A DNA stretch of 64,000 bases from the IMG/VR virus record IMGVR_UViG_3300018915_000002, one strand, 5' to 3'. This document shows, in pieces, positions 4,878 to 61,054 of this stretch. The notes beneath the pieces were generated by a model. It saw only the letters and a list, made by a program, of their open reading frames with translations, was not told where the DNA came from and did no database searches. Position 1 is the first letter of the stretch, and every line of letters starts with the position of its first letter. The DNA comes from a virus. A program made the position numbers and the translations under genes.

Positions 4878-4891
4878 CACGGCTCTCCGTG
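4878..4891. repeat. CACGG-N4-CCGTG palindrome #1
   Basis: CACGGCTCTCCGTG, intergenic. Confidence 0.8.
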
Positions 4892-4896
4892 GCGAA

Positions 4897-5574
4897 ATGC
4901 AATATTTAACTAATCACTCTAATTCTTCTTCTGGAACCCTTGAGATTATTCGTGTCGAATCACGAAAATACTGGTATAGGGGGTTAAAGCAGGCTGAGTT
5001 AATTATTCGGGAAAAAAAGGCAGCTTTGTCATCGAATCGGAGGGCAAGGGAACGGATGCTTCGAGACATTCAGTTGATCGAAGAGTCCTTAATCTATTTG
5101 CGCCCGATCTCCAAGATTCTTCGTCCTATCCCAATTTTGGGAACCTGGCTGTTTAATCGAGTTTGTGATCAAGACGATAAAATCGTCGATTGCAAAAATT
5201 CGATGATTGAAAACGAATCTTTATTCCGGGATTGTCAAACGGAATTAGAAGTTGCAACCCTAGAATACAATCGTATGCTCAAAGAGCATCCAGAGGCGAC
5301 CGAGTTAAGTTTCCAGGAGTTAGAGGCTCTGCATGGATCAATTGCCCTTCTAGCGCAAAAAGCCAGCTTTGTGTCTCATCGAATGTTTGCGATAGAGACC
5401 GGATTACCGATAGAAGCAGCGATCGCGTTACTCGAAGCTGATCCCGAAGAGCGCGAATATCTTTGGGAGCGAATTGCGAAGGTAAGAAATGAAATCGGGG
5501 TAGGCGAAGCTGCTGCTTTCATGGGTGCAGTCTCTCCCGACCAATTATTGGTTGAGGAGGGCGCTGTTGAGTAA
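4897..5574 (+). CDS. Helical/coiled-coil hypothetical protein
   Basis: 225-aa ORF in the operon. Confidence 0.5.
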   Translation: MQYLTNHSNSSSGTLEIIRVESRKYWYRGLKQAELIIREKKAALSSNRRARERMLRDIQLIEESLIYLRPISKILRPIPILGTWLFNRVCDQDDKIVDCKNSMIENESLFRDCQTELEVATLEYNRMLKEHPEATELSFQELEALHGSIALLAQKASFVSHRMFAIETGLPIEAAIALLEADPEEREYLWERIAKVRNEIGVGEAAAFMGAVSPDQLLVEEGAVE

Positions 5575-6760
5575 AAACATTAATGTCTATCCGGATGACT
5601 TTAGTCGCGTCATCACTAGCAATGGCGTGATTGATCCGAGTACTGCACTGGAAACCGCTGTAAGTGGCTTGGAGATGGCCGCCCGTGACACCGCTTTACG
5701 TCTTGTACGGCAACGCCAGAAAGCAGCAAGAGCGATTATCGCAACCCAAAACAAAGTAGTTCGTGCCTCTCACAGACGGATGCCTCCGAGGATAGTGGGT
5801 AAGGCTATTACCCCTTCCGTGACCCTTGGTTCGTTCGCCTTTATGCCTGGAACAAAAGGGTTGCAGGTATTTAACCTCCTGAATGAGATATTTCGTCGAT
5901 CCTCAAGCGTCCTTCCTAGTGAGCATGTTTATGGCTCGACTATTGGAAATGCCGAATCAGGGAAGTTTATTGGAGGTCACACGGATGCTATCGGAGCTGC
6001 CGTAATTGCCTCTATCGACAAGGTTCTGTACTTCCCTAATGAGCAAGTTAAGGGGCAAATAGCCAAGCTCTCCGAGCCGCGACTGTGTGCGATCGGGCAA
6101 ATGGGAGATAGGACGAGGGGGATAATTGCTGGGGGAGTTAATTCCTTTGGAGTACTAAAGCAAGATTGCCATGTCTACAATCACTCCAACGACACAATCG
6201 CCTTGCTTGCGAACTTCCTTCAAAGAACCCGTTTCGCCCCTCATGGTGGGTTATCCAGTAAGTTTGCTGGATACACATTAGGTGGAAGTGAAAGGGCTTG
6301 GGGCGGACAACTGATTAATTCAATTGAAAAAGTGGATTATGTCACCGCTTTGTCGAGTTCTCGCTATATCACTGGAACTAGTCCCCATGCCCACGTCATT
6401 CACGCGACATTTGGAAACGATGTAGCAGGACATCTTGCGGGGGGATCTAATTCTTTTCCTCCAAGCAGGAAGTGGAATACGAATGACATCACGGAATTTC
6501 CTTTCGCGACAGAGACCCCGTTCTTAAGCGCGACCAAGCTAACTAACGAACTCGCCTGTTCGTTTGGCTCTGGAAATAGTGAAGCGGGTTATGTATTTTC
6601 AGGCTTTGTTGATAGCAATCTTTCGACTTTAACAAATAGTGGCGTTTTCAAATATCGCTATTTCGATAAACAAGCTTTCTTAGTTGACTCTCGCTTACTA
6701 GAGCAGGCATGGGATAGGGGTGCGGTGTCGGATTACGGAGCAGGATTTAGCTATGCTTAA
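5567..6760 (+). CDS. Kelch-like beta-propeller virion protein
   Basis: Repeated blades GKFIGG, GIIAGG, GYTLGG, GHLAGG, GYVFSG. TTG start at 5567 chosen because of GAGGAGG at 5554-5560. Confidence 0.6.
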   Translation: MSKNINVYPDDFSRVITSNGVIDPSTALETAVSGLEMAARDTALRLVRQRQKAARAIIATQNKVVRASHRRMPPRIVGKAITPSVTLGSFAFMPGTKGLQVFNLLNEIFRRSSSVLPSEHVYGSTIGNAESGKFIGGHTDAIGAAVIASIDKVLYFPNEQVKGQIAKLSEPRLCAIGQMGDRTRGIIAGGVNSFGVLKQDCHVYNHSNDTIALLANFLQRTRFAPHGGLSSKFAGYTLGGSERAWGGQLINSIEKVDYVTALSSSRYITGTSPHAHVIHATFGNDVAGHLAGGSNSFPPSRKWNTNDITEFPFATETPFLSATKLTNELACSFGSGNSEAGYVFSGFVDSNLSTLTNSGVFKYRYFDKQAFLVDSRLLEQAWDRGAVSDYGAGFSYA

Positions 6761-9936: not shown

Positions 9937-10433
9937 CTATTAGCTATAAAAGAAACCGGAATTTTTTCCTTCGCTTTGTTGATGGCGAATTTGAAGGAAC
10001 ATCGTTTCCTGATGATATGGCGAATCCTGATCGCCAAGCCCTCCAAGAATGGCTAGATGCAGGGAACGAAGTAGAAGAAATACAATCCGCTGCTCCAGAG
10101 CCATCTGTAGACAAATGGAAAGGACTTGCCGCCGCATTCAAATTATCTGAACTCAATGGCATTCTCAAGGGACTTAAAGATGCAGGGGATAACCCAAAAG
10201 TCAACGCCATCTGGCGAATCTCCGATGACCTGACGTTAGTGATCTTGAACGATGTATTCAGCGACGATATTCGCACGAAGTCAATGACGCAAGAGTTCAT
10301 CGCTTTATTCCAGAAATTAGAGGAAGGGGAAGTAGTGGTGCCTGACTCAGCTCGGATCGAGATTCGCGAAGCTTTAGAAAGACTGGGCTTTGACTCAGTT
10401 GTTGAAGCCTTGTCACGGAATTCCGTGGTCTAA
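9933..10433 (+). CDS. Tail fibre assembly chaperone-like protein
   Basis: FPDDMANPDRQALQEWLDAGN motif, directly after the fibre-tip gene. Confidence 0.65.
   Translation: MTISYKRNRNFFLRFVDGEFEGTSFPDDMANPDRQALQEWLDAGNEVEEIQSAAPEPSVDKWKGLAAAFKLSELNGILKGLKDAGDNPKVNAIWRISDDLTLVILNDVFSDDIRTKSMTQEFIALFQKLEEGEVVVPDSARIEIREALERLGFDSVVEALSRNSVV
10414..10427. repeat. CACGG-N4-CCGTG palindrome #2
   Basis: CACGGAATTCCGTG, in the last codons of 9933..10433. Confidence 0.9.
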
Positions 10434-11928: not shown

Positions 11929-11942
11929 TAAAGAGTCCTCGT

Positions 11943-11956
11943 CACGGAGTCCCGTG
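11943..11956. repeat. CACGG-N4-CCGTG palindrome #3 (inside a longer hairpin)
   Basis: AGTCCTCGT-CACGGAGTCCCGTG-GTGAGGACT. Confidence 0.9.
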
Positions 11957-12023
11957 GTGAGGACTTTCTGTTTGTATGTCATTTTACGCTACAATGTGAA
12001 TAGCTACTTATTAAAGCAAAGTC

Positions 12024-14433: not shown

Positions 14434-14447
14434 CACGGAACTCCGTG
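14434..14447. repeat. CACGG-N4-CCGTG palindrome #4
   Basis: CACGGAACTCCGTG, abutting a stop codon. Confidence 0.9.
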
Positions 14448-14726
14448 TTACGCTTCGGAATGCTTGGAAAACCCAACGATTTTTTGAGCTACTGCTACCT
14501 GCAACCCTTCCTCCAAGTCATCGAAGACCGAACCAATTTGGTTCTCGACGAGAAACTGACGGTGTTGGGTGTAGTCGCCTCCATTCTCATGGATGAAGCT
14601 TGGCAACAAAGTACCATCGTAAATTGCCTTGACAGCAGGCGTTCCCCGATCAACAGGAGCGCCGTAGGTTACGACTGGCGTTGAGTAGATGCGTCGGGAA
14701 AGTGATTCCCATGTATTGTCAGGCAT
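14448..14726 (-). CDS. Hypothetical protein
   Basis: Last gene of the coupled minus-strand run. Confidence 0.55.
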   Translation of the reverse strand: MPDNTWESLSRRIYSTPVVTYGAPVDRGTPAVKAIYDGTLLPSFIHENGGDYTQHRQFLVENQIGSVFDDLEEGLQVAVAQKIVGFSKHSEA

Positions 14727-15099
14727 TGCTATCCTCTACTTCTTTGATTACCTGTGCCAGCGCTGGAGGTTCCGCCCCATAAAGCTCTGTTTGTAGTTTT
14801 AGTTCCTCCCTAAAGACATCTATAGGGATATTTTCTTTTTTTGCTACACACCAGATTGCCCTCCACATCGCCACTCGGTATTCATAGGATGGTTCTACTC
14901 CACTGTTGACAACTTCCTGTCCGTCACGATAGGTTCCGTAGACGGCTATCTGCAATCCTCGCTCAACCATCCCCCAGTGCCGTCCGCACATTAAATACTT
15001 TGCGGCGATAGGGGCTTTGCAGCCTTTGGCATGACAGCGATGTACTACCCGATTTGAAGGATTTCTGGCTGTTCCCGTACTTGAAACTCTCTTGCCCAT
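14719..15099 (-). CDS. Hypothetical protein with Cys/His cluster (HRCHAKGC...MCGRHW)
   Basis: Putative Zn-binding motif; start uncertain. Confidence 0.55.
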   Translation of the reverse strand: MGKRVSSTGTARNPSNRVVHRCHAKGCKAPIAAKYLMCGRHWGMVERGLQIAVYGTYRDGQEVVNSGVEPSYEYRVAMWRAIWCVAKKENIPIDVFREELKLQTELYGAEPPALAQVIKEVEDSNA

Positions 15100-16031
15100 T
15101 CCTCTGGATTCCCTCCTTTTTTGTCTTCAAATTCTACTTGCCAGTTTGTGGATTCAGCCCCAGTTCCCGCTATATAGGGAGCCGAATCCACAGGGTTCGC
15201 GCCCATTTGCTTGAAGAATGCCTTGACACCATGCTCTCGACACTGGTGAAGAATTGATCGCCCCCAATTTAGGTTGAACTGTCGCGCTTTATGACCGGAT
15301 TCTCCGCCAATGATCACCCAGTCTACGGGATATTTATCGAGGTGCAGGTTCACGTCTCCCAGTAATGGCTCTGCCGAGATGAAGGTGTGCCAGCCCTGTC
15401 GCTTGAGTTGATGCATCATAGGCATCCGTTCATCCGCTCTGATTTGATCTTCCACGGAAGCGCCCAGCATCATGTTGGGAAGGGGAAATTGATCACATTG
15501 CTTCCCATCAAGTTTGCCGCCCACTTTATACTTATCGATTGCCTCGTTGATTACTTCAAAATGCTGTCCTGGAGGCAAGGATAAGTCCGTAATGAGGTTT
15601 ATCAGGGAAATATGGGAGTCTTTGTACTTAATAGCTGACTGAACACTGCTCCTCAGGGGAGAATCCAGCCATCTCAGAGCGCATTCTGGTCGTTTGGTTA
15701 GCATCAAGAATCGATGCAGTGGGCATAAGGCTGCTGTCAAGAATGCCATTGCGATCCAGTCGTCTGGAGACTCCTCGTGGAATGGATCGGTCATTGAAGG
15801 GAACCATGTTGTTGGTTTTGACAGCAGAGGTTCAATTAACCCCATTACGTGGAAGTTGAGTGTTCCATCCCATGCCGCGATCTCCTCTGTGTATTGAGGT
15901 ACTTTTGGGTTCTTCGCTAACCTCTTAGCAATCTTTTCGGCGTAGCATCTGGCGCAACCGGGGCTTTTCGGCGAACACCCTTGTTGATACCCCCAGGAGT
16001 CGCCTACCCACTCAATTGTGGTTTTACTCAT
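15045..16031 (-). CDS. DUF5131 / phage Gp37Gp68 family protein
   Basis: MSKTTIEW...GCSPKSPGCARCYA...SMTDPFHE...LTKRP...SAEPLLG...WVIIGGESG...FFKQMG. Confidence 0.9.
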   Translation of the reverse strand: MSKTTIEWVGDSWGYQQGCSPKSPGCARCYAEKIAKRLAKNPKVPQYTEEIAAWDGTLNFHVMGLIEPLLSKPTTWFPSMTDPFHEESPDDWIAMAFLTAALCPLHRFLMLTKRPECALRWLDSPLRSSVQSAIKYKDSHISLINLITDLSLPPGQHFEVINEAIDKYKVGGKLDGKQCDQFPLPNMMLGASVEDQIRADERMPMMHQLKRQGWHTFISAEPLLGDVNLHLDKYPVDWVIIGGESGHKARQFNLNWGRSILHQCREHGVKAFFKQMGANPVDSAPYIAGTGAESTNWQVEFEDKKGGNPEEWAREFQVREQPEILQIG

Positions 16032-16301: not shown

Positions 16302-17687
16302 TTAATTTCCTATTAGCGATCGCACAATTGCTTCAGCAAGCTTGCAGGGAACGCCATTCCCAATCCCCTTGCAAGCCAATGTGTTCTTTACTGGCAACTC
16401 ATACCAGTCTGGTAACGTTTGGAATCGGGCAAGACACCGAGAGGTCATCTGCACGACTCTTGCCGAGTTTAAGATTGCCTTTGGCGTAGAGGCTGGACGA
16501 CGCATCTTCTCTGCCGTGATCGTGAACGACGGCTCATCCATTTCCCTGACTGTGCAGTCACGGATCGTGTTGACGACATCAATTAGCACGGCTTTTGACT
16601 GATGGCTGGGTTTGCCATCGGTAATTACAGTTGGTGCGGGTTCAGAGTACTCCCTAATCCCATCCCCATACTCCTGATTCGGGTTTTTGGACTGAATGAG
16701 CATAGCCCTTAAGGCTTGGTGGCTGCTAGTAACAGTGAGAGCCGGCTCCTCGTGTTGTCGAGTTGATACAGATTCGCCTCTATTTCCAATGCCACAGACT
16801 AAAACAGCCTTGGGTCTATTTCCGGTTCGCTCGGTATCACTTACGGTTGCCGCAGGTTCGTAGCCTTCACGGATAGTGAAGCTACTGGCATTTCCTCCAG
16901 GAACTAAGATTGCTCTAGCTTTGCTATTTGTTGCTGCATCAGCAGGGATTGTAGGTAGAGGCTGATCCCTTTTTCTTATCCCTGGAATCGTTGGACGGTT
17001 ATCTATTGCGAATTGCAAGAAGCTTTCCGAGCAGTTCGAGCCACCAATCCACAAATCCCCATCAATGTCTTGCCCTTTTTCAAGGGCAGCCCCTAGTCGA
17101 TCTAGCTGCCACTTGGCAAGCTTTGTTTCTGGCAGGGTTGGCAATAAATCCTCAATTGACTGATACCATCCCATCCAGTCCTGGGTTTGCGGCATTGGTG
17201 GTACAAATCCATGTCTGACCGCACGGAGAATCAATCTTCTACGGGTCTGAGGAACCCCGAAGTCGGCGGAATTGACTACCTGTCGGTCAATCCAATATCC
17301 GAGGCTATATAGCGTATCCTCTATTATTTTCAAAGACTTACTTCGCTTGTAAGCCTCGACGTTTTCCAGGATGAAATACTGGGGTTCTAAGGCTGTAATG
17401 GCATCCTCAATTGCAAAAGCGAAGTCCAGATCTAAGCCACTTTCCTTCGCGCCCTTCTTCGCTACGCTGAAATTAATGCATGGAGGGCTAGCCCAGAGGA
17501 TGTCGGGCTTCTCTAGTTTTCTAAAATCGGTTTTGCTCACCGATTGACATAGGACTTTGTGTCCTAGTTGACGAGACACTTCTGCGATCGCCTCATCAAT
17601 CTCAATTCCCCAAGCCAGTTCACAACCTGCCAGTTTTGCGCCAATGTCGGCTAGTCCAAAGCCAGTGAAAAGTGATGCAAAGATCAT
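16302..17687 (-). CDS. dcm: DNA (cytosine-5) methyltransferase with expanded, repeated variable region
   Basis: Motifs LFTGFG, ASPPC, ENV, VPQTRRR, ARFQT and GNGVP. Confidence 0.92.
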   Translation of the reverse strand: MIFASLFTGFGLADIGAKLAGCELAWGIEIDEAIAEVSRQLGHKVLCQSVSKTDFRKLEKPDILWASPPCINFSVAKKGAKESGLDLDFAFAIEDAITALEPQYFILENVEAYKRSKSLKIIEDTLYSLGYWIDRQVVNSADFGVPQTRRRLILRAVRHGFVPPMPQTQDWMGWYQSIEDLLPTLPETKLAKWQLDRLGAALEKGQDIDGDLWIGGSNCSESFLQFAIDNRPTIPGIRKRDQPLPTIPADAATNSKARAILVPGGNASSFTIREGYEPAATVSDTERTGNRPKAVLVCGIGNRGESVSTRQHEEPALTVTSSHQALRAMLIQSKNPNQEYGDGIREYSEPAPTVITDGKPSHQSKAVLIDVVNTIRDCTVREMDEPSFTITAEKMRRPASTPKAILNSARVVQMTSRCLARFQTLPDWYELPVKNTLACKGIGNGVPCKLAEAIVRSLIGN

Positions 17688-18505
17688 TCACTTCCTCCTT
17701 CACGGACTTCCGTGGTGAAGTTTAAAGCCCAGACCCAAGGGTTGGGATAAGCATGGCAGGGAATACCCTTGCGACAAGCATTGAGGGGCTTTTCGGGGAT
17801 GTCATCCTCGTCCCAAGGGTAGCAGATATAGTAAGCAAGGGTTCCCCCTTTACGGACGGGAGTCCATTTACCATTTATCTCGTTCCATAGCGATCTGAAA
17901 CTTCGTCGTCCAGCATCTCCGTCCTGGCTTGTGCAGGGCACTTGAAGTTCGTAGTTAAAGTATCGCACTCGGCTTTTAAACGGAGGGATTGCTCGCAAGA
18001 TTTCTAAGGGTTGTATTCCTTCTCTGATCGCATCCTCTTCACTAATCTCACTAATGCGCTGAACCCGAACCTCGGTGATCTCCCTCCAAATCCTAGCTGC
18101 CCACTTGGGCATGAATATTGCACTATGGCTTTCCGTTTCTTTGTGATGCGCCCAAGCAATCATCGCTCCCTCATTCTTCTTTGCAACCATGACTGTTTCA
18201 TGATCCGCGTCATAGTGCCAGCAGTGGTCGCTACCAAGGTAGAGCGATTCTTTACAGTAAAGGCGATCGCCTACTTTGTATGGAGCCTTCGATAGCATCA
18301 AGGGACTATCTATCAGTGGTGCGTTAGCTTTTTTGTCTCTCCGCCACACCCAAGAGCCATTCTCTAAAGTGGGCTGAGGATCGATTATTCTTCGGGTTTG
18401 AGTCTTGGGACTTTCATCTCTAAGCAATGCCTTGATCAGGTGCGGCTTAAAAAGTAAGCCGATATCCTTGCCAGTGGCGACTGGCTCTTTGTCGATGGTT
18501 TGCAT
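17684..18505 (-). CDS. ASCH/PUA-like phage protein
   Basis: KTQTRR...PY.VGDRLY.KE...IFMPKWAARI..EIT.VRVQR...ISEEDAI.EG...NPWVW. Confidence 0.8.
   Translation of the reverse strand: MQTIDKEPVATGKDIGLLFKPHLIKALLRDESPKTQTRRIIDPQPTLENGSWVWRRDKKANAPLIDSPLMLSKAPYKVGDRLYCKESLYLGSDHCWHYDADHETVMVAKKNEGAMIAWAHHKETESHSAIFMPKWAARIWREITEVRVQRISEISEEDAIREGIQPLEILRAIPPFKSRVRYFNYELQVPCTSQDGDAGRRSFRSLWNEINGKWTPVRKGGTLAYYICYPWDEDDIPEKPLNACRKGIPCHAYPNPWVWALNFTTEVREGGSE
17701..17714. repeat. CACGG-N4-CCGTG palindrome #5
   Basis: CACGGACTTCCGTG, just upstream of the dcm RBS. Confidence 0.9.
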
Positions 18506-18557: not shown

Positions 18558-19043
18558 GTGAAGCAGGTTATTGCACTTGGTATTGACCCTGGCTACGGAA
18601 TTTGTGGATACGGAGTGGTGGGATTAGAGGGCGGTGTTCAGTGGGGAACAATTGAGACTCCTCCAAATAAGCCATTCCCTAGGCGACTAGTGGAACTTGA
18701 TCAAGATATTACAACTCTGCTCAAGCAATTTCGCCCTGATGTAGTGGGGATTGAGGAAGATATGTTTTTGGAGCGCAATACCAATGCATCAACTGTGATG
18801 CAAGCCTATGGAGTGATTCGATGCGCGATCGCACGGTTAGACATTCCTGAAATTAAATTTTCTCCTCGCGAGATCAAAGAAGGCGTTTGCCATAGCCGTG
18901 CTAGTAAGTCAGAGATGATTCGAGCTGTCAAAGAACTGTTTGAGATTGATCAGCCGATCAAGGAAAATGATTCCGCAGATGGCTTAGCGGCAGCTTATCT
19001 CGCGCAAACTCGTTATAAACTAGAATTTTTGACCAATGGTTGA
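18558..19043 (+). CDS. ruvC: Holliday junction resolvase RuvC
   Basis: LGIDPG...GYGVV...PDVVGIEE...P.EIK...ASKSEM...DSADGLAAA. Confidence 0.92.
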   Translation: MKQVIALGIDPGYGICGYGVVGLEGGVQWGTIETPPNKPFPRRLVELDQDITTLLKQFRPDVVGIEEDMFLERNTNASTVMQAYGVIRCAIARLDIPEIKFSPREIKEGVCHSRASKSEMIRAVKELFEIDQPIKENDSADGLAAAYLAQTRYKLEFLTNG

Positions 19044-19656
19044 TCAACCCGCTCCTCATGATGTTGTCCTTGGTGGGCATCAAAAGCAAAAGATTGAATA
19101 TTCTTTACGAGATGATGTTGAGGCTGTACTGCGCCATTTAGAACAAGAAGATCGTCGAACAGACAATGAATTAGTTCGCGTTAAGCTTAACCACGAGCAG
19201 CGGATGATTGCATTATTAATGGAAAAAGGTTCCAAGAAGATGTTGGTTCCTTTGATTCAGTGGATAGACGCGCTGGAGGTAATGCAGCGCCAAAGGGAAG
19301 AACAATTGCAACAAGAGTGCGATCAGTTATTTAAAGAAAATCGCGCCCTCAAGGCGAAGCTGGCGGCTGTTCACTACGAATTGAGTGGGGAAAAGGAGAT
19401 AGATCGCGATCGCCTACTAAGCCTTCTAGATACTGAATTTGGCGACGAATTTAGGGATTTACTGGGCATCCTATGGCAGTCTGGGACAATCGCCAATTGG
19501 TATAGAACTGGAAGAAGAATCTCTGCGCCACGAGTACGGCACCTAGCCACTTTAATCGAGGAGTTCCAGTCAAAATACCCACACTTCTCCCGGAGCCGCG
19601 TCTATCGAGAGGTTCGTGGAGAGTCGTTATATGATTCATCGCTTGAAGATGACTAA
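19036..19656 (+). CDS. Hypothetical coiled-coil protein
   Basis: ORF coupled to ruvC. Confidence 0.55.
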   Translation: MVDQPAPHDVVLGGHQKQKIEYSLRDDVEAVLRHLEQEDRRTDNELVRVKLNHEQRMIALLMEKGSKKMLVPLIQWIDALEVMQRQREEQLQQECDQLFKENRALKAKLAAVHYELSGEKEIDRDRLLSLLDTEFGDEFRDLLGILWQSGTIANWYRTGRRISAPRVRHLATLIEEFQSKYPHFSRSRVYREVRGESLYDSSLEDD

Positions 19657-20096
19657 CCAATTACAACTTCGATTGCATCCTGTGCGGGCGGGATAGAAAA
19701 CCCAAAACCTATCTGGTTCTCGTCTACCTTAAAAATTTCACACTCAATCCTGTATCGGTGAGTTCCCACCAATTCCCACGCTGAGGCATCCACGTCAAGT
19801 GACTTTAACCCGTGGTTGACAATAATTTCTGTGTCCGTGCCATTGCCGATGCGTGTCCTAACTTTCCGAGGGGCGACAACCAGATTACCCGCGAACGGGA
19901 GGATGGCCTTGCTTCTTGCATCGAAGTAGTAGGGAACGATGCGATCGCTGCCTCGAACAAAAAAGACCCAACCGTCTCGCCTGAGGGCTTCACTGGTACT
20001 CAGTTCCGCAACGCTGGGCATCGTGTCATAGACTTCCCAGCGGTGCTGATCAACTATATTGAAGCGAACTTCAAGCGTGTTGGAGTAGCGAGGCAT
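19653..20096 (-). CDS. Virion protein with HNLG-type module
   Basis: IGNGTDTEIIVNHGLKSLDV...DENQIGFGFS.PP...IEVVI. Confidence 0.55.
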   Translation of the reverse strand: MPRYSNTLEVRFNIVDQHRWEVYDTMPSVAELSTSEALRRDGWVFFVRGSDRIVPYYFDARSKAILPFAGNLVVAPRKVRTRIGNGTDTEIIVNHGLKSLDVDASAWELVGTHRYRIECEIFKVDENQIGFGFSIPPAQDAIEVVIG

Positions 20097-20100: not shown

Positions 20101-20114
20101 CACGGAACTCCGTG
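20101..20114. repeat. CACGG-N4-CCGTG palindrome #6
   Basis: CACGGAACTCCGTG, 4 bp from an ATG. Confidence 0.9.
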
Positions 20115-20221
20115 GTAGAGCAAAAGCCCTCCGAGTGAATTAAATCACCCGGAGGGCTTTGTGTGTTGTCTAGGGTATTTTACCTTATGAAGGGCAAAGT
20201 TAAGTCAAGCTTGACGGAAAA

Positions 20222-24210: not shown

Positions 24211-24564
24211 ATGACAAAGACAGTGGCAGTTTTTGCTTTCAAGGTTTGTGTTAAGTCAAATTTTCCTGAAAGGCTTGTCCCTCTGATCACAACAGCACTG
24301 CGTGGGGGTGAATCAATAACGTTTGTTGAGGTCGAAAACCTTTGTTTAGTGGCAAGAGGTCGCTTCATGACAGAGGTAGTGACGGCTTTTGTTTTCAAAG
24401 TCTGTGTTGAGTCTATTTCTCCCCAGCAAGTTGTCTCACATATTGCAGCAAGGCTACGAGATATTGAGTCGGTGACGTTTGTTGAGGTCGAAGAATTTCA
24501 AGAGCGGACAGGATTAATTTACTCTCAAACGGACAACGACATTAGCTACCACGGAACTCCGTGA
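24211..24564 (+). CDS. Hypothetical protein made of an internal tandem duplication
   Basis: Two copies of MT..V..F.FKVCV.S..P...V..I...LR..ES.TFVEVE. Confidence 0.55.
   Translation: MTKTVAVFAFKVCVKSNFPERLVPLITTALRGGESITFVEVENLCLVARGRFMTEVVTAFVFKVCVESISPQQVVSHIAARLRDIESVTFVEVEEFQERTGLIYSQTDNDISYHGTP
24550..24563. repeat. CACGG-N4-CCGTG palindrome #7
   Basis: CACGGAACTCCGTG at a convergent junction. Confidence 0.9.
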
Positions 24565-24565
24565 T

Positions 24566-24862
24566 CTAGTCGCTGATCTTCCAAAAGATTCGATTAAGGC
24601 TATTGGCAACGCGAACAGCTACGAATAAAGAGTTGAAGTACCCGTAAGGGAATTTGATTACTTTTCCGTTATGGTTTTCTTCCATGATTAATACCTCTAA
24701 TACTAGGAGTATGGCTCTTTTGTGGATTTCCACACTAAAATTCATGCGCTGAACTATTTTCTTTTCTAGTGTTTGACTTAAAATATCGAATGGGCAATGC
24801 TCCGGATGTTTAGCTACACCCAATTCAATTAATAAATCAATAAACGTTTTCTGCTTTTCCAT
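24566..24862 (-). CDS. Hypothetical protein
   Basis: ORF track. Confidence 0.5.
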   Translation of the reverse strand: MEKQKTFIDLLIELGVAKHPEHCPFDILSQTLEKKIVQRMNFSVEIHKRAILLVLEVLIMEENHNGKVIKFPYGYFNSLFVAVRVANSLNRIFWKISD

Positions 24863-29833: not shown

Positions 29834-29847
29834 CACGGAACTCCGTG
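29834..29847. repeat. CACGG-N4-CCGTG palindrome #8
   Basis: CACGGAACTCCGTG. Confidence 0.9.
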
Positions 29848-29912
29848 GCGGAAAAAGCAAAAGCCCTCCAAGTGAATAAATCACCCGGAGGGCTTTGTTA
29901 ATTAATGGTATT

Positions 29913-30076: not shown

Positions 30077-30940
30077 CTACACGAACAACTCCGTAAGAAC
30101 AAGTTGGCGCGATCGCCCGTTCATCTTCTTCTCGTACTGAATGCCCAATGCCCGACGATCATCACCTGTAACCTTTTTCCTGCCTGCGTCGTATTCCCAG
30201 CTCATAGAGTCGCTTGTATCGACTAAGGCATCAACCAAGGAGTTTTTGAGGGCAGTGTCCTTTAGTCCAAATCCGTGCAACCTGATGTCGTGTAATCCTT
30301 GAGCTTTAAGCTCTCGGCGAATCGCAAGTAGTATTGCTTCCAATTCTTTAGGTTTGTCGTTTCGGTCACGAATGCTGCCAACACCAAGCCACATCCCCGG
30401 CTTCAGGCGATCGCTATATTGTCGAACGTGTGCCACATATTCTTCAGGTTGATATCCCTGAAGAACTGGCATAAGATACACATCAATGCCACGGGCATCA
30501 AGTAGCTTCTTGATCGCATCGTAGCGGTAGACGGTTAAGGACTGATGCCCCTCTACCGTTTGCTTCATTTTCTCTAGCATGAATGGCACACACATATAGT
30601 CTTGGGTCACAGCGGCGAGTAAATTGCCATGTCGATGCCAGTGTTCGATGAGTGTCACATACTCTGCAATAGACATCTGCGTCCCCATCGTGGCGAGGCA
30701 GGTGAAAGCACCAGAGTCTAGAATCCAGTTCTTAACCGGGAAAGGAGCTTTCCTTGCTGCTCGTTTTGCGGCTGAACGCCTAGGCTTAAAGGGTTTTTTG
30801 CGATCACTGTTCCAATACCATTTGAGCCAGCGATGCCAGTTCGATCCCCCATTCGTCGCCTTCAAACGATTCACAGATACCATGCAGTTCTCAAACAGCA
30901 CGGCATCCGGCAAGTCGTGTACGCCGATGAAAAACGTCAT
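30077..30940 (-). CDS. DpdA/queuine tRNA-ribosyltransferase-like (TGT-fold) protein
   Basis: WILDSGAFT...QDYMC...MPVLQG...GVGSI...LHGFGLK...SDSMSW. Confidence 0.8.
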   Translation of the reverse strand: MTFFIGVHDLPDAVLFENCMVSVNRLKATNGGSNWHRWLKWYWNSDRKKPFKPRRSAAKRAARKAPFPVKNWILDSGAFTCLATMGTQMSIAEYVTLIEHWHRHGNLLAAVTQDYMCVPFMLEKMKQTVEGHQSLTVYRYDAIKKLLDARGIDVYLMPVLQGYQPEEYVAHVRQYSDRLKPGMWLGVGSIRDRNDKPKELEAILLAIRRELKAQGLHDIRLHGFGLKDTALKNSLVDALVDTSDSMSWEYDAGRKKVTGDDRRALGIQYEKKMNGRSRQLVLTELFV

Positions 30941-31003: not shown

Positions 31004-31017
31004 CACGGAGTTCCGTG
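31004..31017. repeat. CACGG-N4-CCGTG palindrome #9
   Basis: CACGGAGTTCCGTG, between divergent genes. Confidence 0.9.
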
Positions 31018-36352: not shown

Positions 36353-36366
36353 CACGGACTTCCGTG
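36353..36366. repeat. CACGG-N4-CCGTG palindrome #10
   Basis: CACGGACTTCCGTG, filling a 23-bp intergenic gap. Confidence 0.9.
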
Positions 36367-39111: not shown

Positions 39112-40866
39112 CTAGGAGGCAGCGACTACTCCACTGCAAGCGATATACCAATCCTTAAGACCAGGATTCCGACCTTCCAGTGAACAAATTTCCTCAACGA
39201 GCTTGGTGCGATGCGCCCCAGTTCCGCCAGATCTGCGGTACGCTTGCAATTCGCCCTGAGCTTGGATGTAGCGAACTTGATCGCCTGCCATCGCTTGCTT
39301 TTCGGTATCCCCCTCAGCCCCACTGGCAACTAAGTCCACCAGATTCCTCGTGATGCGAGGAGGTTGCCGCTTGGGATTGATGGCATCCAAGATTTCACTT
39401 TTTAAGGATTCGCGATCGCCCTTAATTACCTCAGCCATCGCTTGCACTAACTCTGATCGTTCCTGCTTGCGCTGCTCTTCCGTCTGAGCTGTCTGCCGCT
39501 GAGCTTGGACTTCCTTACGTTCTGCTTGGATTTCGCCAACAACTTTTGAAAGTTCACCAACCTCAGTCCTCAATTCCTTTTGCCCTTCAATAGCCCGCTT
39601 ATTGTCTTCGGCGAGTCCACTCAGGGTTGTGTTCATTTGCTGGAAATAACGTTCAATTTGTTCTGCGTCCATGTCAGTTTCTAGTGAGGTAGTTTGGGCT
39701 GATGATGCTGCGACCTCTAATTCCGAGGATTCCGTTGCGGAGGGGTTTTCCTCTGCTGGGTCTTCATCAGAGGAAGCAGCAATTCTGGTTTGGGTCTTCT
39801 GGTAGGTGGCACGAGCGGCGTAGAGGATATTCGCCCCAAGGATTTCCAGAGAATCGATATGTGAAACTCTCGTCCCTCCAACAATCGCGGGACGAGTAAG
39901 GGCATGAGCGTTCATACTCATGCCTAAGATGTCTTGATTTGAGGCGATAAGCTGAACTTTCTCGCCTTGGCTCCAAGGGAACAGGTGGCCTTTTACAAGG
40001 AACTTATTCTCCTCAATCCGAGCCGAAGTCATGATGCCGACGATGTGGTTATTGGCGTGGCACGACAGGCTATCGTCAGCATCCAGGGGAAGTCCACCTG
40101 ATGCGTTAATTGCCGTAGCTGCTGCTTCAGCGACATGGCGAGGCACATAAAGGGGGAGGTCTGAACCCTTTGACGGAGCGCATTCTGATGGCTCATCAAT
40201 ATAGAAAAGAACCCCTTCAATTGGCAGGCAATTAGGCATCGAACGAGGCGATCGCACGGTAGCTGCCGCCTCAATTTCATGAACCTGGCACGTAAATTCC
40301 AGTTCCAGTTCCTTTGGTTGCCCTTGCGCCTGTACAACATCCTCGGTGGTCACGGAACTCCGTGGTTCCTCTTTCGCTGAGGCGTACATCGGATAATTGG
40401 GAGGTGGAAACATCATCTCCCCGTCGTACCCTGGAAACTTATCAATTTGATCTTCTAGGAAGTCATTGAGGTCATTCAGGATTTCTTGTGCGATCGCACT
40501 TCTATCCTTCTCGGTTCCGTAGTAGCGATCAATTTGGGTTTCCGTCATCATGAAAAGCCCCATAAAACGTGATCGAAACGTTTCAATCGCCGTAGAAATG
40601 GAACTTTGCCAAGCTTTGCTTTTCAGTTCCTCTCCAGCTTGTCCCGCTGCGATCGCGTCAGGTTCGGCTTCTTCCCCTAATTCCTCAATGCGATCTTCTA
40701 GCTGTTCTCCAAGCTTTTCGATGTCCCCCAAGAAACCACGCAAGTCATTAACGCTGGTTACTTTAGCGTCAACCAGGATGCTTCCCACTTCTTTGAAGAG
40801 GGATTTCATGCGATCAGTATTGCGTTGGGATAGAACTCGTCCAGCCGCTTCAAGAGTTTTTGCCAT
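39112..40866 (-). CDS. Prohead protease fused to coiled-coil scaffold
   Basis: Lies between portal and capsid. AGRVLSQRN N-terminus, central SCH...IVG...KGHLF...LGMSM...GANIL domain, C-terminal coiled coil. Confidence 0.7.
   Translation of the reverse strand: MAKTLEAAGRVLSQRNTDRMKSLFKEVGSILVDAKVTSVNDLRGFLGDIEKLGEQLEDRIEELGEEAEPDAIAAGQAGEELKSKAWQSSISTAIETFRSRFMGLFMMTETQIDRYYGTEKDRSAIAQEILNDLNDFLEDQIDKFPGYDGEMMFPPPNYPMYASAKEEPRSSVTTEDVVQAQGQPKELELEFTCQVHEIEAAATVRSPRSMPNCLPIEGVLFYIDEPSECAPSKGSDLPLYVPRHVAEAAATAINASGGLPLDADDSLSCHANNHIVGIMTSARIEENKFLVKGHLFPWSQGEKVQLIASNQDILGMSMNAHALTRPAIVGGTRVSHIDSLEILGANILYAARATYQKTQTRIAASSDEDPAEENPSATESSELEVAASSAQTTSLETDMDAEQIERYFQQMNTTLSGLAEDNKRAIEGQKELRTEVGELSKVVGEIQAERKEVQAQRQTAQTEEQRKQERSELVQAMAEVIKGDRESLKSEILDAINPKRQPPRITRNLVDLVASGAEGDTEKQAMAGDQVRYIQAQGELQAYRRSGGTGAHRTKLVEEICSLEGRNPGLKDWYIACSGVVAAS
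40351..40364. repeat. CACGG-N4-CCGTG palindrome #11 (intragenic)
   Basis: CACGGAACTCCGTG, in a linker of the protease/scaffold gene. Confidence 0.9.
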
Positions 40867-42671: not shown

Positions 42672-42685
42672 CACGGAGTTCCGTG
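42672..42685. repeat. CACGG-N4-CCGTG palindrome #12
   Basis: CACGGAGTTCCGTG, upstream of portal. Confidence 0.9.
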
Positions 42686-43978: not shown

Positions 43979-43992
43979 CACGGACTTCCGTG
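43979..43992. repeat. CACGG-N4-CCGTG palindrome #13
   Basis: CACGGACTTCCGTG. Confidence 0.9.
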
Positions 43993-46290: not shown

Positions 46291-46338
46291 CACGGAATTC
46301 CGTGGCGCTTTTTTTACTCTCTGCCACGGACTCCCGTG
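46291..46338. repeat. CACGG-N4-CCGTG palindromes #14 and #15 (tandem pair, each extended and followed by T-runs)
   Basis: CGC-CACGGAATTCCGTG-GCG at 46291 and TCTGC-CACGGACTCCCGTG-GCAGA at 46325. Confidence 0.9.
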
Positions 46339-51822: not shown

Positions 51823-51836
51823 CACGGAACTCCGTG
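51823..51836. repeat. CACGG-N4-CCGTG palindrome #16
   Basis: CACGGAACTCCGTG. Confidence 0.9.
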
Positions 51837-54472: not shown

Positions 54473-54486
54473 CACGGAGTTCCGTG
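54473..54486. repeat. CACGG-N4-CCGTG palindrome #17
   Basis: CACGGAGTTCCGTG, 2 bp from an ATG. Confidence 0.9.
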
Positions 54487-55604: not shown

Positions 55605-55632
55605 TGATGACTTAGAACCGAAACATAAAACA

Positions 55633-55662
55633 ACCCCGTACTCAACCCCTGAGTGCGGGGTT
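55633..55662 (+). terminator. Repeated terminator hairpin, copy 1 of 3
   Basis: ACCCCGTACTCA-accc-CTGAGTGCGGGGT. Confidence 0.8.
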
Positions 55663-55726
55663 GCTTGTTACAGGACGCTATGTATAATTTGTTACAATAA
55701 TATAAGGACATTTATGTAGCAAAACC

Positions 55727-56271: not shown

Positions 56272-56312
56272 AAGTGATTGTCTATACCAGTAGATCGCGC
56301 CCATAAACAAAG

Positions 56313-56343
56313 ACCCCGTACTCAACGCCTGAGTACGGGGTTT
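56313..56343 (+). terminator. Repeated terminator hairpin, copy 2 of 3
   Basis: ACCCCGTACTCA-acgc-CTGAGTACGGGGTTT. Confidence 0.8.
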
Positions 56344-56350
56344 TATGCGT

Positions 56351-56364
56351 CACGGTACTCCGTG
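56351..56364. repeat. CACGG-N4-CCGTG palindrome #18
   Basis: CACGGTACTCCGTG, between a terminator and a promoter. Confidence 0.9.
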
Positions 56365-56421: not shown

Positions 56422-56805
56422 ATGACAAAGTATCGATGGAGTAATGTCTATGAGTGGTTTGAAGACTACATTAATCGCTTGGTGTCAGAAGGCAATATTG
56501 ATGAGATTGCCTCAATTGCCAAGCAATTTGCCCTTCAAGACGGAGATGATGCAATCCGCCATTTCTTTGAATCAAAGATGGTAAAGGATGGCTTTTTCAA
56601 GCAGGACAAAGAAGAGTTTATTGAACAGTTACGCAATGGCATCAAGCAGCTTCCTGCCTACCAAGCAGATAACTGTGATGAGGAAGACGAAAGTCAGTGG
56701 ATTGACCTGGAGGAATGGTTGAACGACATTCACGCAGAAACCTTCGATAGCCTGTACGAATCTCATGACACGGCAGAAGAGGCGATCGCATACCTCAGGA
56801 ACTAA
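56422..56805 (+). CDS. Acidic hypothetical accessory protein
   Basis: Start from GGAGCAAAACCATG; promoter TGTTACAAT at 56384-56392. Confidence 0.65.
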   Translation: MTKYRWSNVYEWFEDYINRLVSEGNIDEIASIAKQFALQDGDDAIRHFFESKMVKDGFFKQDKEEFIEQLRNGIKQLPAYQADNCDEEDESQWIDLEEWLNDIHAETFDSLYESHDTAEEAIAYLRN

Positions 56806-56808
56806 AAA

Positions 56809-57033
56809 ATGAGCATCGAAGAAATCGAGATCATCGAACAACAGGAGTGGATTGTTTTAGCTGCCCATCCACCAGTCGTTTTGAAATGGGCGCAATTGTG
56901 CCAACAGTCAGAGCGACTGATCTCCCAACATCTACGCTATCGAGAGATGGCAGGAGAACCGCAATTGCTAGTTACAAGAAGCTTGTGGTCATGGGCTACA
57001 GGTGATGAAGCAGCTACCAGCACTGGAGAATAA
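56809..57033 (+). CDS. Hypothetical protein
   Basis: Coupled ORF. Confidence 0.5.
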   Translation: MSIEEIEIIEQQEWIVLAAHPPVVLKWAQLCQQSERLISQHLRYREMAGEPQLLVTRSLWSWATGDEAATSTGE

Positions 57034-57037
57034 TTCA

Positions 57038-57301
57038 ATGAAAAAAATCTCTTGGTTAGACAGCGGCGGAGTTCAATACTCTTCCATCCATATATCTGCC
57101 GATGAGGGGGAAAGCACCCTATGTGGCTATCCTCCCATGAGAAACCACCGCAGCAAAATCTGGCAAATAGCACAAGCCCCAAAGCGTAAGCAGGGGCAAA
57201 GCAACAGATGTAAAACGTGTTTCTCCAAGGCGCATCAAGCAGGCAATAAGTCTGTTAAAGACTGGTTTTCTGCACCGAGCCAAACCCTATTACAGGATTA
57301 A
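57038..57301 (+). CDS. Small protein with His/Cys motif (H...TLCG...CKTC)
   Basis: Putative Zn finger. Confidence 0.55.
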   Translation: MKKISWLDSGGVQYSSIHISADEGESTLCGYPPMRNHRSKIWQIAQAPKRKQGQSNRCKTCFSKAHQAGNKSVKDWFSAPSQTLLQD

Positions 57302-57305
57302 TGAT

Positions 57306-57503
57306 ATGTCAGTACCAGATGAAGTTTGGGTTGTCGCCTCAAAGCCTAAGTCAGGCTTGCCTAAGGCAGCCAAAATAGCCGAAGGGTTGTTTCATCTAAC
57401 ACCGGAGGATGCGAAGGCTCAACTGTCTGCAATGGAACACCCTGAATACTATGGTGTTTATCCCGCCTTACTTCAAATCCTAGAGCCAGTTCAAGACAAA
57501 TAA
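57306..57503 (+). CDS. Hypothetical protein
   Basis: Coupled ORF. Confidence 0.5.
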   Translation: MSVPDEVWVVASKPKSGLPKAAKIAEGLFHLTPEDAKAQLSAMEHPEYYGVYPALLQILEPVQDK

Positions 57504-57538
57504 CTCTTGCTCAACTGAGACTCTCCCACTAATTAAAA

Positions 57539-57573
57539 ACCCCGTACTCAATGCCTGAGTGCGGGGTCTTTTT
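57539..57573. terminator. Repeated terminator hairpin, copy 3 of 3 (bidirectional)
   Basis: AAAACCCCGTACTCA-atgc-CTGAGTGCGGGGTCTTTTT. Confidence 0.8.
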
Positions 57574-57578: not shown

Positions 57579-57592
57579 CACGGAGTTCCGTG
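57579..57592. repeat. CACGG-N4-CCGTG palindrome #19
   Basis: CACGGAGTTCCGTG, next to the AIPR stop. Confidence 0.9.
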
Positions 57593-57593: not shown

Positions 57594-58829
57594 TTAGTTG
57601 AGGCTCTTATTTTTCTCCCGAATCTGGGACGGGATGCGACCGTTTGACTCAGATCCTCGCCTGATCATTTCCCGTAGATAACGGGTTTCAAACTCCTTTG
57701 CTGAAGTGTAGAGGTTGATCCACACTTCTTCGTTCCTGAGGATTCCGCCTATATTGCGCCTATCCTTTTCCCACTCCTTATTAAGATACGAGGCGTAATC
57801 TTTCCAAAGTACATCGATCACTTCGCGGAGGAGATTGTCGTCCTGGTCAAGATCCTTGTCGAGTGGTAGTTGCCACTTGTCGTCCACAATAAAAGCCCGT
57901 AGGGCTGCCACGACAGGCAGAGCAAAAACACTAGGGATGGCAAAAGGAATCACGGTTCCGTCCACCAGCAGAGAATCTTGTTGAGTTCCCTCTGGCTTAA
58001 TTCCAGGTAGCTTCTTGGGGTTGCCTGCTACCTTTTGGCAAATCAATTTTTCCGCCACGACAGCGACAGGCAGGCAATCTTCGATCAAAGCCTCTGCCCG
58101 ATCAATCGTCTTGACATCCATAACCACAGAGCCACCCCCAACAACGGAAACAGGATGCTGTTTCTTTTTGGCATCGAATCGGATACTGTCCATTGCTGTT
58201 AGCAGCTTAATGACATGGACTACTGTCTGCCGCGTCGATTTTGTCCTGTTTTCTGCTTCTGCCTGGTTTTGGTAATACGAGATAGTTTTAAACCCTTGTT
58301 CCTCTAGAGCCATCTTCAAAACATCAAACGTTCCATACTTGAAAAGGATTGAGGCGCGATCCACCTTCTCTGCGGTATTGAGATGGACAACCGCGTTTTT
58401 GACGGCATCATCCAGTACCCCTACGTTTACGCGAATCACAACATACGCCTCGGTCAGATCGGCTGACTGCGTCCAAGCCTGTTTAATTGCATTGATAGTA
58501 TGACCCCCGTTTGCTACCCCGTGCAATTTTGGAAGCATCTTCACTGCGAGCTTACACGGGTTTCCTGCGGCATCATACTTGAATTCAGCATCTTCCGCTA
58601 TCAATACGATACCTAAATTAGACTTCAAGAAATCCCTTGGACTCTCCATTAACGTCTGGATCATTCCTTTGACAGTCTTAGATTGCGACTTTGCTCGACG
58701 CAAATTAGCGTCAAGAGGCATTTTGTCAAATGGAATGTTAGCAGCACAGACGATCGCTATGTAATATATTTCTTTTCCGTGCCGAAATTGATCGGCGGCA
58801 GCCACTGGGAATACTATGTTCGTCGCCAT
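57594..58829 (-). CDS. AIPR family protein
   Basis: DANLR...V.GM.QTL.ESP.DF...NLGIVLIA...GVANGGHT..AI...VVIRV...HLNT. Confidence 0.8.
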   Translation of the reverse strand: MATNIVFPVAAADQFRHGKEIYYIAIVCAANIPFDKMPLDANLRRAKSQSKTVKGMIQTLMESPRDFLKSNLGIVLIAEDAEFKYDAAGNPCKLAVKMLPKLHGVANGGHTINAIKQAWTQSADLTEAYVVIRVNVGVLDDAVKNAVVHLNTAEKVDRASILFKYGTFDVLKMALEEQGFKTISYYQNQAEAENRTKSTRQTVVHVIKLLTAMDSIRFDAKKKQHPVSVVGGGSVVMDVKTIDRAEALIEDCLPVAVVAEKLICQKVAGNPKKLPGIKPEGTQQDSLLVDGTVIPFAIPSVFALPVVAALRAFIVDDKWQLPLDKDLDQDDNLLREVIDVLWKDYASYLNKEWEKDRRNIGGILRNEEVWINLYTSAKEFETRYLREMIRRGSESNGRIPSQIREKNKSLN

Positions 58830-60030: not shown

Positions 60031-60044
60031 CACGGAGTTCCGTG
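60031..60044. repeat. CACGG-N4-CCGTG palindrome #20
   Basis: CACGGAGTTCCGTG, between divergent genes. Confidence 0.9.
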
Positions 60045-60600: not shown

Positions 60601-60620
60601 CACGATTAAGGAGCAAAACC

Positions 60621-61025
60621 GTGAGCGAAATCACGAACTACATAGAAGTGAGTCATGAAATCACCAAGGAAGGATATCTTTCTATCAATGTTATTTTCAA
60701 CAGGATTCCGCCAGTTGAGCAATTTGGACAGAATTTAATTGTTTCTCAGACTGAAGCAAAGCAAGCTTTAAGTGGCTTACTTTGGCAATCCAACGATTAC
60801 CCTGATGATCTAAGAGAACAATTGGTTCAAGTCCTTGATTCTTGGCGCAATCCATCTCAAGGACATGGAAAGGGAAGGACGAGGGTTCTATTCTATTTCC
60901 AAAAATCAGATGATCCAGAATCTCGAAAACAGCAGGTGATTACCTACATGAAGCAGAGATGGAATGGATCTTTCTATCAGTCTGACTTTAACAGTCAGTT
61001 TCAGGTTGACGATATAAATCAGTAG
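60621..61025 (+). CDS. Hypothetical accessory protein
   Basis: AGGAGCAAAACCGTG leader. Confidence 0.6.
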   Translation: MSEITNYIEVSHEITKEGYLSINVIFNRIPPVEQFGQNLIVSQTEAKQALSGLLWQSNDYPDDLREQLVQVLDSWRNPSQGHGKGRTRVLFYFQKSDDPESRKQQVITYMKQRWNGSFYQSDFNSQFQVDDINQ

Positions 61026-61040
61026 CGACGCACCCTCCAC

Positions 61041-61054
61041 CACGGAACTCCGTG
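61041..61054. repeat. CACGG-N4-CCGTG palindrome #21
   Basis: CACGGAACTCCGTG, after a stop and before a terminator. Confidence 0.9.

Follow-up and report, generated by a model that had tools for sequence, protein, structure and literature searches.

The stretch analysed here, a window of 64,000 nt from the IMG/VR virus record IMGVR_UViG_3300018915_000002, contains portal, sheath-like, baseplate-wedge and tail-fibre genes, two C5 methyltransferase genes, RuvC-like, DpdA-like, DUF5131, AIPR and GAF genes, and the N-terminal part of a tyrosine recombinase gene. A contig of 242,772 bp is on record for the portal protein. The element is some 243 kb long, myovirus-like and cyanobacterial. Distributed among its genes, at about one per 3 kb, are 21 exact copies of the palindrome CACGG-N4-CCGTG, and it is these copies, their placement and their counterparts in related elements that are considered below (Table 1).

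The palindrome set is strongly non-random. In 100 shuffles of the window that preserved dinucleotide content the pattern occurred 0.02 times on average and at most once, and each of the 21 start coordinates listed by an earlier, sequence-only reading of the window proved to be an exact match. Sites with one or two mismatches are fewer than chance predicts (8 observed, 15.3 expected), which means that a copy is either perfect or absent, and that the family is without degenerate members. The sequence CACGGA-NN-TCCGTG is common to 17 of the 21 copies, the first and fourth spacer positions being A and T in each of them. Spacers are AACT in seven copies and AGTT in five (12 together), ACTT in three and AATT in two, the same counts as in the sequence-only reading, and the RY flanks that it described hold in 16 to 21 copies per position: R at -2 and Y at -1 in 20 copies each, R at +15 in 16 and Y at +16 in all 21, the right side being mostly G-Y. 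Written as a duplex the site is GTCACGGAGTTCCGTGGT; as a recognition site it would most likely take the dyad-symmetric form (Y)CACGGA-NN-TCCGTG(R).

Calls of coding and intergenic sequence rest on a crude map of open reading frames (ORFs), according to which 91.6% of the window is coding and 8.4% non-coding. Fourteen of the 21 copies are nevertheless fully intergenic (P = 6e-11). Three others (31004, 56351 and 60031) overlap doubtful ORF extensions or short ORFs, and if these are counted as intergenic the tally agrees with the 17 intergenic and four coding copies previously claimed. The four coding copies (10414, 17701, 24550 and 40351) are read in differing frames, which argues that it is the nucleotide sequence that is selected and not the peptide. 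The mid-gene copy at 40351 leads to the same conclusion, also drawn by the sequence-only reading: dyad and frame are kept among relatives while the peptide varies (PRSSVT, SQSPVT and SQDTVT in three phages).

In eleven cases the copy either overlaps the last codons of a gene or is no more than 15 nt from a stop codon. The following ATG can be as near as 2 nt or as far as about 140 nt, and at 24550, barring an unannotated small gene, 394 nt; between copies and -10-like hexamers there are anywhere from 6 nt to over 80 nt. A fixed-distance promoter or operator of sigma-70 type is ruled out by the variation in distance to -10/-35 elements and start codons, and a Shine-Dalgarno role for the GGAG within the sense-strand motif by the overly variable spacing to the ATG. 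In sense orientation the central dinucleotide is GT in eight copies, AC in three and AG in three, a bias that is not significant.

One way to quantify the distribution of the copies is to compare the gaps between them with those produced by random placement. Two null models were used, the first placing copies uniformly and the second placing them at the 73 gene junctions only. The coefficient of variation of the gaps is 0.54-0.60 (P of a value this small = 0.002) and the largest gap is 5536 bp, as against about 10 kb under random placement (P of equal or smaller = 0.0017); P is close to 0.002 under both models. The four largest gaps (5536, 5498, 5349 and 5284 bp) fall in the band of 5.3-5.5 kb that had been noticed before, and the mid-gene copy at 40351 does divide a gap of 6319 bp. 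Within this window, then, the proposal that the copies cover the genome stands, spacing being more even than either model predicts. Together with the conservation of the in-gene copy, the even spacing points to whole-genome coverage rather than to regulation of individual genes.

Table 1. The 21 copies of CACGG-N4-CCGTG in the window, with the sites aligned to them in three soil-crust relatives (the four right-hand columns give sequences on the strand aligned with the relatives; + and - denote gene strand)
Coordinates	Spacer	Setting	Window, aligned strand	L121	L124	L167
4878..4891	CTCT	5 nt 3' of stop, 5 nt 5' of next ATG; tandem + genes				
10414..10427	AATT	Convergent; final codons of + gene (SRNSVV*), 2 nt past stop of - gene				
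11943..11956	AGTC	Tip of 16-pair terminator-like stem 11932-11967				
14434..14447	AACT	Adjoins stop of - gene 14448-14726; then hairpin and promoter-like -10				
17701..17714	ACTT	Terminal codons of - gene 17684-18505 (TEVREGGSE*); 13 nt before methyltransferase ATG, just 5' of that gene's AAGGAGG				
20101..20114	AACT	Past terminator-like hairpin; 4 nt before ATG of - gene 19653-20096				
24550..24563	AACT	2 nt past stop of - gene 24566-24862; ends + ORF (HGTP*), palindrome giving the stop				
29834..29847	AACT	About 12 nt past 16-pair terminator 29896-29860 (-); 23 nt before ATG of 749-aa gene				
31004..31017	AGTT	Divergent region between DpdA-like gene and 674-aa gene; 6 nt 5' of -10-like hexamer TATATT				
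36353..36366	ACTT	Between two tail-region genes, 1 nt past stop, 8 nt before next ATG; position kept in L121 (N5) and L124	CACGG AAGT CCGTG	CACGG GAGAA CCGTG	CACGG AGAT CCGTG	not covered
40351..40364	AACT	Mid-gene, in linker (PRSSVT) of 587-aa capsid-region gene; L121, L124 and L167 share both position and frame	CACGG AGTT CCGTG	CACAG TCCC CTGTG	CCCAG GATA CTGTG	exact
42672..42685	AGTT	Portal leader: 10 nt past stop of small gene, 5' of portal leader hairpin; kept in L124 (CCCAG arms) and L167	CACGG AACT CCGTG	none aligned	CCCAG TATC CTGGG	exact
43979..43992	ACTT	9 nt past terminator 44029-44002 (-)				
46291..46304	AATT	Itself an intrinsic terminator stem (8 pairs and T run)				
46325..46338	ACTC	Before sheath operon; itself a second terminator stem (10 pairs and T9); position kept in L121 and L167	CACGG GAGT CCGTG	CACGG AGTCT CCGTG	not covered	exact
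51823..51836	AACT	Terminator/site/promoter: 10 nt past terminator 51866-51847 (-), 27 nt 5' of TGTTATAAT -10; kept in L121	CACGG AGTT CCGTG	CACAG TGGA CTGGG	not covered	not covered
54473..54486	AGTT	Divergent; 2 nt before ATG of 67-aa - gene; kept in L121 (mixed arms)	CACGG AACT CCGTG	CCCAG CCAC CTGTG	not covered	not covered
56351..56364	TACT	9 nt past terminator 56313-56341; left border of cassette 56422-57503				
57579..57592	AGTT	Convergent; 11 nt past terminator 57539-57567, 1 nt past stop of AIPR gene; L121 copy with one mismatch	CACGG AACT CCGTG	CACGA AGCT CCGTG	not covered	not covered
60031..60044	AGTT	Divergent intergenic region				
61041..61054	AACT	15 nt past stop, 8 nt before terminator 61063-61091				

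Nucleotide and protein searches of phage, plasmid and IMG/VR collections returned no close relative of the element, and neither did a portal-only peptide-pattern scan of IMG/VR or a scan of a metagenome collection with a peptide pattern from a 1069-aa protein. Relatives are present in soil-crust metagenomes, where one contig, of a different sample, matches the window at 100% identity over 14.7 kb. Syntenic junctions were aligned with three further soil-crust relatives, L121, L124 and L167, in which the genes have a nucleotide identity of about 70%. Positions are conserved across these junctions and the arms of the palindrome change symmetrically (Table 1). A 28-kb segment of the L121 type carries nine sites, again about one per 3 kb, with the consensus AT-C[A/C]CAG-N4-CTG[G/T]G-AT; L167 carries four exact copies of the window type in 16.5 kb, their flanks being symmetric (AC..GT). 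Judged by the sheath, L167 is the more distant from the window (79% identity, as against 83% for L121), yet it has the same arms; CACGG is therefore probably ancestral, and L121 and L124 would be the lineages that switched.

The sites of L121 and L124 also bear on how the two arms relate to each other. Three have mixed arms (CCCAG..CTGTG or CACAG..CTGGG), in which the non-complementary pair is C-T or A-G and not a wobble, and this suggests half-sites that vary independently; in L121 mixed sites number two of seven, close to the 3.4 or so that independent half-sites would give. The CACGG-type sites left over in L121 have an N5 spacer or a mismatch, as relics would show. Gene order is colinear with the relatives over 28 kb, and homology with L121 is interrupted at two points, 46315 and 42667, in both cases beside a copy. 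A relative with 58% portal identity contains TTCGGAATTCCGAA twice.

The Nostoc plasmid pC052_F (NZ_CP040278.1, loci L153-L166) is a complete circular molecule of 223 kb from the cultured strain Nostoc sp. C052, with a sheath protein 56% identical to that of the window, and indicates that elements of this kind can live as plasmids. The core CGGAATTCCG occurs in it 14 times, or 15 if one CGGATTTCCG variant is included; after shuffling, even the looser pattern CGGA-NN-TCCG finds 1.3 matches. Five of the 14 core sites lie within 16 kb of a parA/ParB_N gene pair. ParB_N is absent from two relatives that lack a palindrome lattice, and in the 64-kb window neither a ParB_N gene nor a homologue of the plasmid's ParB was found. 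Besides homologues of the portal, sheath, capsid-region and baseplate proteins, the plasmid has genes for DndB, for a WYL protein and for Cas5d, and it looks like a giant phage-plasmid amenable to study in culture. Different mobile elements adjoin the portal gene in three relatives and are absent from the corresponding part of the window (about 40.9-42.7 kb): an IS605-type TnpB in L121 (11625-13016) and a group II intron reverse transcriptase/HNH gene in L124 (4297-6027), both between the portal and capsid-region genes, and IS607 TnpA plus TnpB on the start side of the portal gene in pC052_F (L153, 12026-13827).

Beyond these elements the motif is not found above chance. In 57 and then 401 genomes of cyanobacterial species CACGGANNTCCGTG occurs 0-2 times per genome, no more often than a control pattern, which rules out a repeat of host origin. 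An exact scan of IMG/VR for the 14-mer gave scattered single matches, as expected by chance, and a few loci with two matches that are unrelated to the window. The motif is not enriched in two 188-kb IMG/VR relatives (portal 47-49% identical), and in one of these an unbiased count of palindromes recovered HIP1 only. HIP1 (GCGATCGC), the highly iterated palindrome of cyanobacterial DNA, is plentiful in the window as well, with 57 copies, of which 4 are intergenic, that track coding density; it occurs 127 times in a 188-kb relative and 198 times in the Nostoc plasmid, and the elements thus share this cyanobacterial signature. The resemblance between the two palindromes goes no further: whereas HIP1 follows coding density and is common to hosts and distant relatives, a single clade has the 14-mer, which is intergenic and is absent from the host genomes searched. 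This contrast in placement rules out a HIP-like, repair-driven origin.

Many copies are associated with predicted transcription terminators. Those at 46291, 46325 and 11943 are themselves stems of terminator-like hairpins with T runs, and those at 10414 and 57579 are weakly terminator-like; the other 16 do not themselves combine a terminator stem with a T run, although six of them follow a separate terminator-like hairpin. Six copies lie 9-15 nt past a terminator or terminator-like stem, beyond the T-tract and 5' of the next -10 (four called by software, that at 20101 by eye), and are for that reason probably barely transcribed. The palindrome is found within 25 nt of 10 of the 15 strongest predicted terminators, where a rough expectation, with copies spread over intergenic DNA only, is about 4 of 15. 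Terminator stems in the window all differ, whereas the palindrome copies share one stem sequence. Three copies sit in divergent promoter regions. The copies that form terminator stems, the association with 10 of 15 terminators and the variants in relatives all go beyond the account given by the sequence-only reading.

Two further arrangements involve hairpins. One family of terminator hairpins (ACCCCGTACTCAA.GCCTGAGT.CGGGGT) has three copies (55624-55664, 56304-56344 and 57530-57570) within 2 kb of accessory cassettes, and the palindrome follows two of the three. A common module stands ahead of two genes 9.7 kb apart, at 20101-20175 and 29834-29905 (- sense), and begins with a TAAAAT-like element, followed by a hairpin of 16 pairs and then by the palindrome; the ATG comes 4 or 23 nt later, which leaves no space in between for a promoter. 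The modules resemble leader or attenuator hairpins, a hint of control by antitermination.

The dinucleotides that flank the palindrome depart from its symmetry. Read on the + strand they are direct, in the form GT..GT at seven copies and AC..AC at one, while GT..AC does not occur (P about 0.006-0.009); identical dinucleotides stand on both sides of 10 of the 21 copies. As a result a G-T wobble can extend the stem at 13 sites if the + strand is considered and at three if the - strand is, irrespective of the direction of the genes. An asymmetry that favors the same wobble is seen in the flanks of pC052_F, by 11 to 3.

The explanation that we favor, tentatively and at somewhat less than an even chance, is that the palindrome serves as the dyad-symmetric target of a DNA-binding protein, dimeric and encoded by the phage, the specificity of which would have evolved together with its sites. 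The sequence-only reading had likewise supposed that a dimeric phage protein binds along the whole genome, and this part of it gains from the inner A...T, the symmetric changes of the arms, the mixed arms and the even spacing. A reading at the level of duplex DNA is favored because every copy has a single stem sequence, unlike the terminators of the window; because the dyad continues, by way of the inner A...T, into the 4 nt that would form the loop of a hairpin and leave A and U unpaired; because the centers AGTT and AACT are interchangeable, being equivalent on DNA and not on RNA; and because the arms of the relatives' sites behave as half-sites.

On this explanation the putative reader would be a symmetric dimer that recognizes double-stranded DNA, and its sites would be held at gene boundaries across a clade of cyanobacterial phage- or plasmid-like elements of about 220-250 kb, leaving no stretch of the window beyond about 5.5 kb without one. 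A shift in the specificity of the reader in sister lineages (position 4 from G to A, position 2 being A or C) would bring about the change of both arms, and sites that were not converted would decay. The most likely job of the sites would be to mark and insulate transcription units: protein bound past a T-tract, or between cistrons, may halt RNA polymerase arriving from both directions, in the manner of a symmetric stoperator. The geometry of hairpin, T-tract and symmetric site does resemble a bidirectional roadblock that backs up a terminator. Of the roles that the sequence-only reading had put forward, the transcription roadblock that silences a prophage accords with the frequent placement of copies 9-15 nt past terminator stems, and the signal for organizing or partitioning the genome draws a hint from the parA/parB genes of the plasmid relative; both are retained here as options.

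Several observations weigh against a dimeric binder. Searches with Pfam (about 60 ORFs) and PHROGs (30) found no DNA-binding reader in the window, there being no helix-turn-helix, ParB or ribbon-helix-helix protein and no Y1 transposase, so that the reader is hypothetical here; nor was a phage repressor identified among the window ORFs scanned. Positions relative to promoters and start codons are very diverse, and one copy is mid-gene, which means that no single role in gene expression fits them all. The direct GT..GT flanks are unlike perfect two-fold symmetry and provide a wobble extension on one strand. The copies in pC052_F are mostly inside genes and are unevenly spaced. Finally, the three copies that are clear terminator stems with T runs, and the 5-nt spacers at some of the relatives' sites, are more easily explained by a hairpin.

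A hairpin would be the functional form if the element acted as RNA, that is, if it were transcribed at transcript ends or between cistrons and served as part of a terminator, as a stabilizer of 3' ends or as a processing site, with a phage RNase or RNA-binding protein that recognizes its exact sequence (compare boxB and N). Such an element would account for the textbook terminator stems at 46291 and 46325 and the copy that tips a 16-pair stem at 11943, for the many copies near stop codons, for the acceptance of 4- or 5-nt loops in relatives whose arms change together, for the excess of GT over AC in sense orientation, and for the lengthening of the stem by G-U wobble on one strand. The bare hairpin is weak, though, at about -7.4 kcal/mol, and neither the shared stem sequence nor the inner A...T is demanded by structure alone. 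Six copies lie past a T-tract and before the next -10, the three in divergent promoter regions have no gene end near them, and the strand competent for wobble is mostly antisense to local genes. The mismatches in mixed arms are not wobbles, and an Rfam scan of the window gave no match. We regard an RNA-level element as unlikely, while conceding that it is the foremost competitor.

Another job that a DNA-binding protein could perform is suggested by KorB, with its operator OB on plasmid RK2, and by ParB with parS, in which a palindromic site is repeated at variable distance from promoters and a dimeric protein of the ParB family silences and partitions the replicon. The copies in the window could then be loading points for a silencing and partition protein of this kind. 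In the most far-reaching version, a clamp, ParB/KorB-like or other, would silence and partition a phage-plasmid of about 243 kb from some 100 places at which it loads or is anchored, these being spaced so as to reach every transcription unit, and its specificity would have switched between sister lineages. As in those systems, a palindrome of 13-16 bp is repeated on a large replicon, and pC052_F has both a parA/ParB_N pair and 14 core sites. The differences are that sites per replicon are about 10-fold more numerous here, that no gene of the ParB family was found in the window and that the motif is unlike known parS or OB sequences. We consider the far-reaching version doubtful.

A third possibility is that the palindromes are recombination signals at module boundaries, like the promoter/stem-loop cassettes (PeSLs) of T4-type phages, where the shared palindrome, with or without its terminator, would supply short homology for the exchange of cassettes. 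The accessory cassette at 56422-57503, which is absent from L121, is indeed bracketed by two modules of about 55 bp, each consisting of a terminator and the palindrome; accessory genes come as units, each gene with a promoter before it and a palindrome and terminator after it; and the two breaks in homology with L121 adjoin copies. Gene order is colinear with the relatives over 28 kb, however, and copies have persisted over the long term at the same junctions, including those between and inside core virion genes. Fourteen bases are very little homology, neither even spacing nor exactness is predicted, and any exchange might be incidental to what the sites are for. Recombination is thus improbable as the explanation, and the suggestion of the sequence-only reading that it had scrambled the gene order is weak: synteny breakpoints coincide with sites at cassette borders and the two L121 breaks, the order being otherwise kept.

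The palindrome might also be selfish: a miniature element akin to repetitive extragenic palindromic (REP) sequences with their RAYT proteins, or to miniature inverted-repeat transposable elements (MITEs), moved by a transposase that acts on DNA hairpins, with GT..GT as target duplications. The identical flanking dinucleotides and the IS200/IS605-type genes of the relatives are in keeping with this, as is the likeness to REPs, which are short GC-rich palindromes found between genes, near 3' ends and at convergent junctions, and some of which act as terminators or mRNA stabilizers. REPs, though, are longer, imperfect, degenerate and variable between strains, whereas the copies here are exact, conserved in position and phage-specific. 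Degenerate copies are lacking; orthologous positions, one of them mid-gene, are occupied in diverged relatives by lineage-specific arms; the contig from another sample shows no polymorphism for presence or absence; no Y1 transposase is found among the window ORFs scanned; and the flanks in L167 are symmetric. We give this explanation very little credence. Equally remote is a hairpin signal in single-stranded DNA on one strand, for priming or replication, or a product of strand-biased mutation, for although the flank asymmetry of the window and of pC052_F, the + strand excess of wobble-extended stems and the even spacing could be so explained, the energy gained from terminal wobbles is negligible, L167 lacks the asymmetry, the central dinucleotide has no polarity by DNA strand in the window (AC 8, GT 6), and we know of no system with such signals every 3 kb.

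Some features of the gene content stand apart from the palindrome. The DpdA-like gene (30077-31021, -; PF23859, E = 1.6e-24) resembles that of DpdA, the transglycosylase that puts 7-deazaguanine into DNA, so that the DNA of the element may carry modified guanines; no genes for preQ0 synthesis were found among the window ORFs scanned. The palindrome was considered as a target of DpdA solely because one copy abuts this gene, and the idea is without support. A tRNA scan of the window found nothing. A RuvC-like resolvase is encoded at 18558-19043 (+), a DUF5131 gene at 15045-16031 (-) neighbors a C5 methyltransferase, an AIPR gene of abortive-infection type (57594-58829, -) is kept in L121, and a stand-alone GAF-domain protein (34210-34818, -) is kept in L124 and absent from a 188-kb relative. 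A direct repeat of 103 nt (62647-62749 and 63504-63606, 88% identical) flanks two small - ORFs just 5' of the tyrosine-recombinase N-terminus, which runs from 63682 onwards.

The closest known parallel in behavior is the 17-bp dyad repeat TGTTCGG-NNN-CCGAACA of Cluster O mycobacteriophages, which is present in 34 invariant copies and three variants (Cresawn et al. 2015, PMC4351075). Its center is biased without being oriented by transcription, many copies are intergenic and some coding, there is no tie to promoters, and a dimeric DNA binder has been predicted (PMC4351075). The palindrome described here is likewise an inverted repeat in many invariant copies with few near-matches; it is built as 6-N2-6 rather than 7-N3-7, in another host and type of phage, and the window has no sequence homology to Cluster O, nor does it resemble any other entry of the phage collection. 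Even spacing, coupling to terminators and switched arms at the same positions have no counterpart in what is reported of Cluster O, and the intergenic bias is stronger. The stoperators of Cluster A phages, bound by gp71 in phage L5, stop RNA polymerase during elongation and thereby keep the prophage silent. A short site is there too repeated at many scattered places, in the narrow gaps between genes within operons, and the logic of coverage fits the even spacing seen here. Stoperators are asymmetric 13-mers, oriented by transcription and tolerant of mismatches (described in part in PMC4351075), whereas the sites in the window are palindromic, exact and without consistent orientation.

To our reckoning the test for even spacing, the pattern of half-sites and relics, the exact motif in L167, the core sites with parAB in pC052_F and the asymmetry of the flanks are new. 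Dispersed exact palindromes of phages, such as the Cluster O repeats, have to our knowledge gone a decade with no function assigned. Arms that switch at identical positions offer a means of finding the reader, which could be a protein whose recognition residues covary with them, and the cultured Nostoc strain, with its 223-kb plasmid, core motif and parAB, is an experimental system. Should the sites prove to be roadblocks or insulators, they would illustrate the means by which a giant phage made up of many self-contained cassettes holds one transcription unit apart from the next; should they load a clamp, a giant cyanobacterial virus would provide a natural case of a reader that co-evolves with its genome-wide network of operators.

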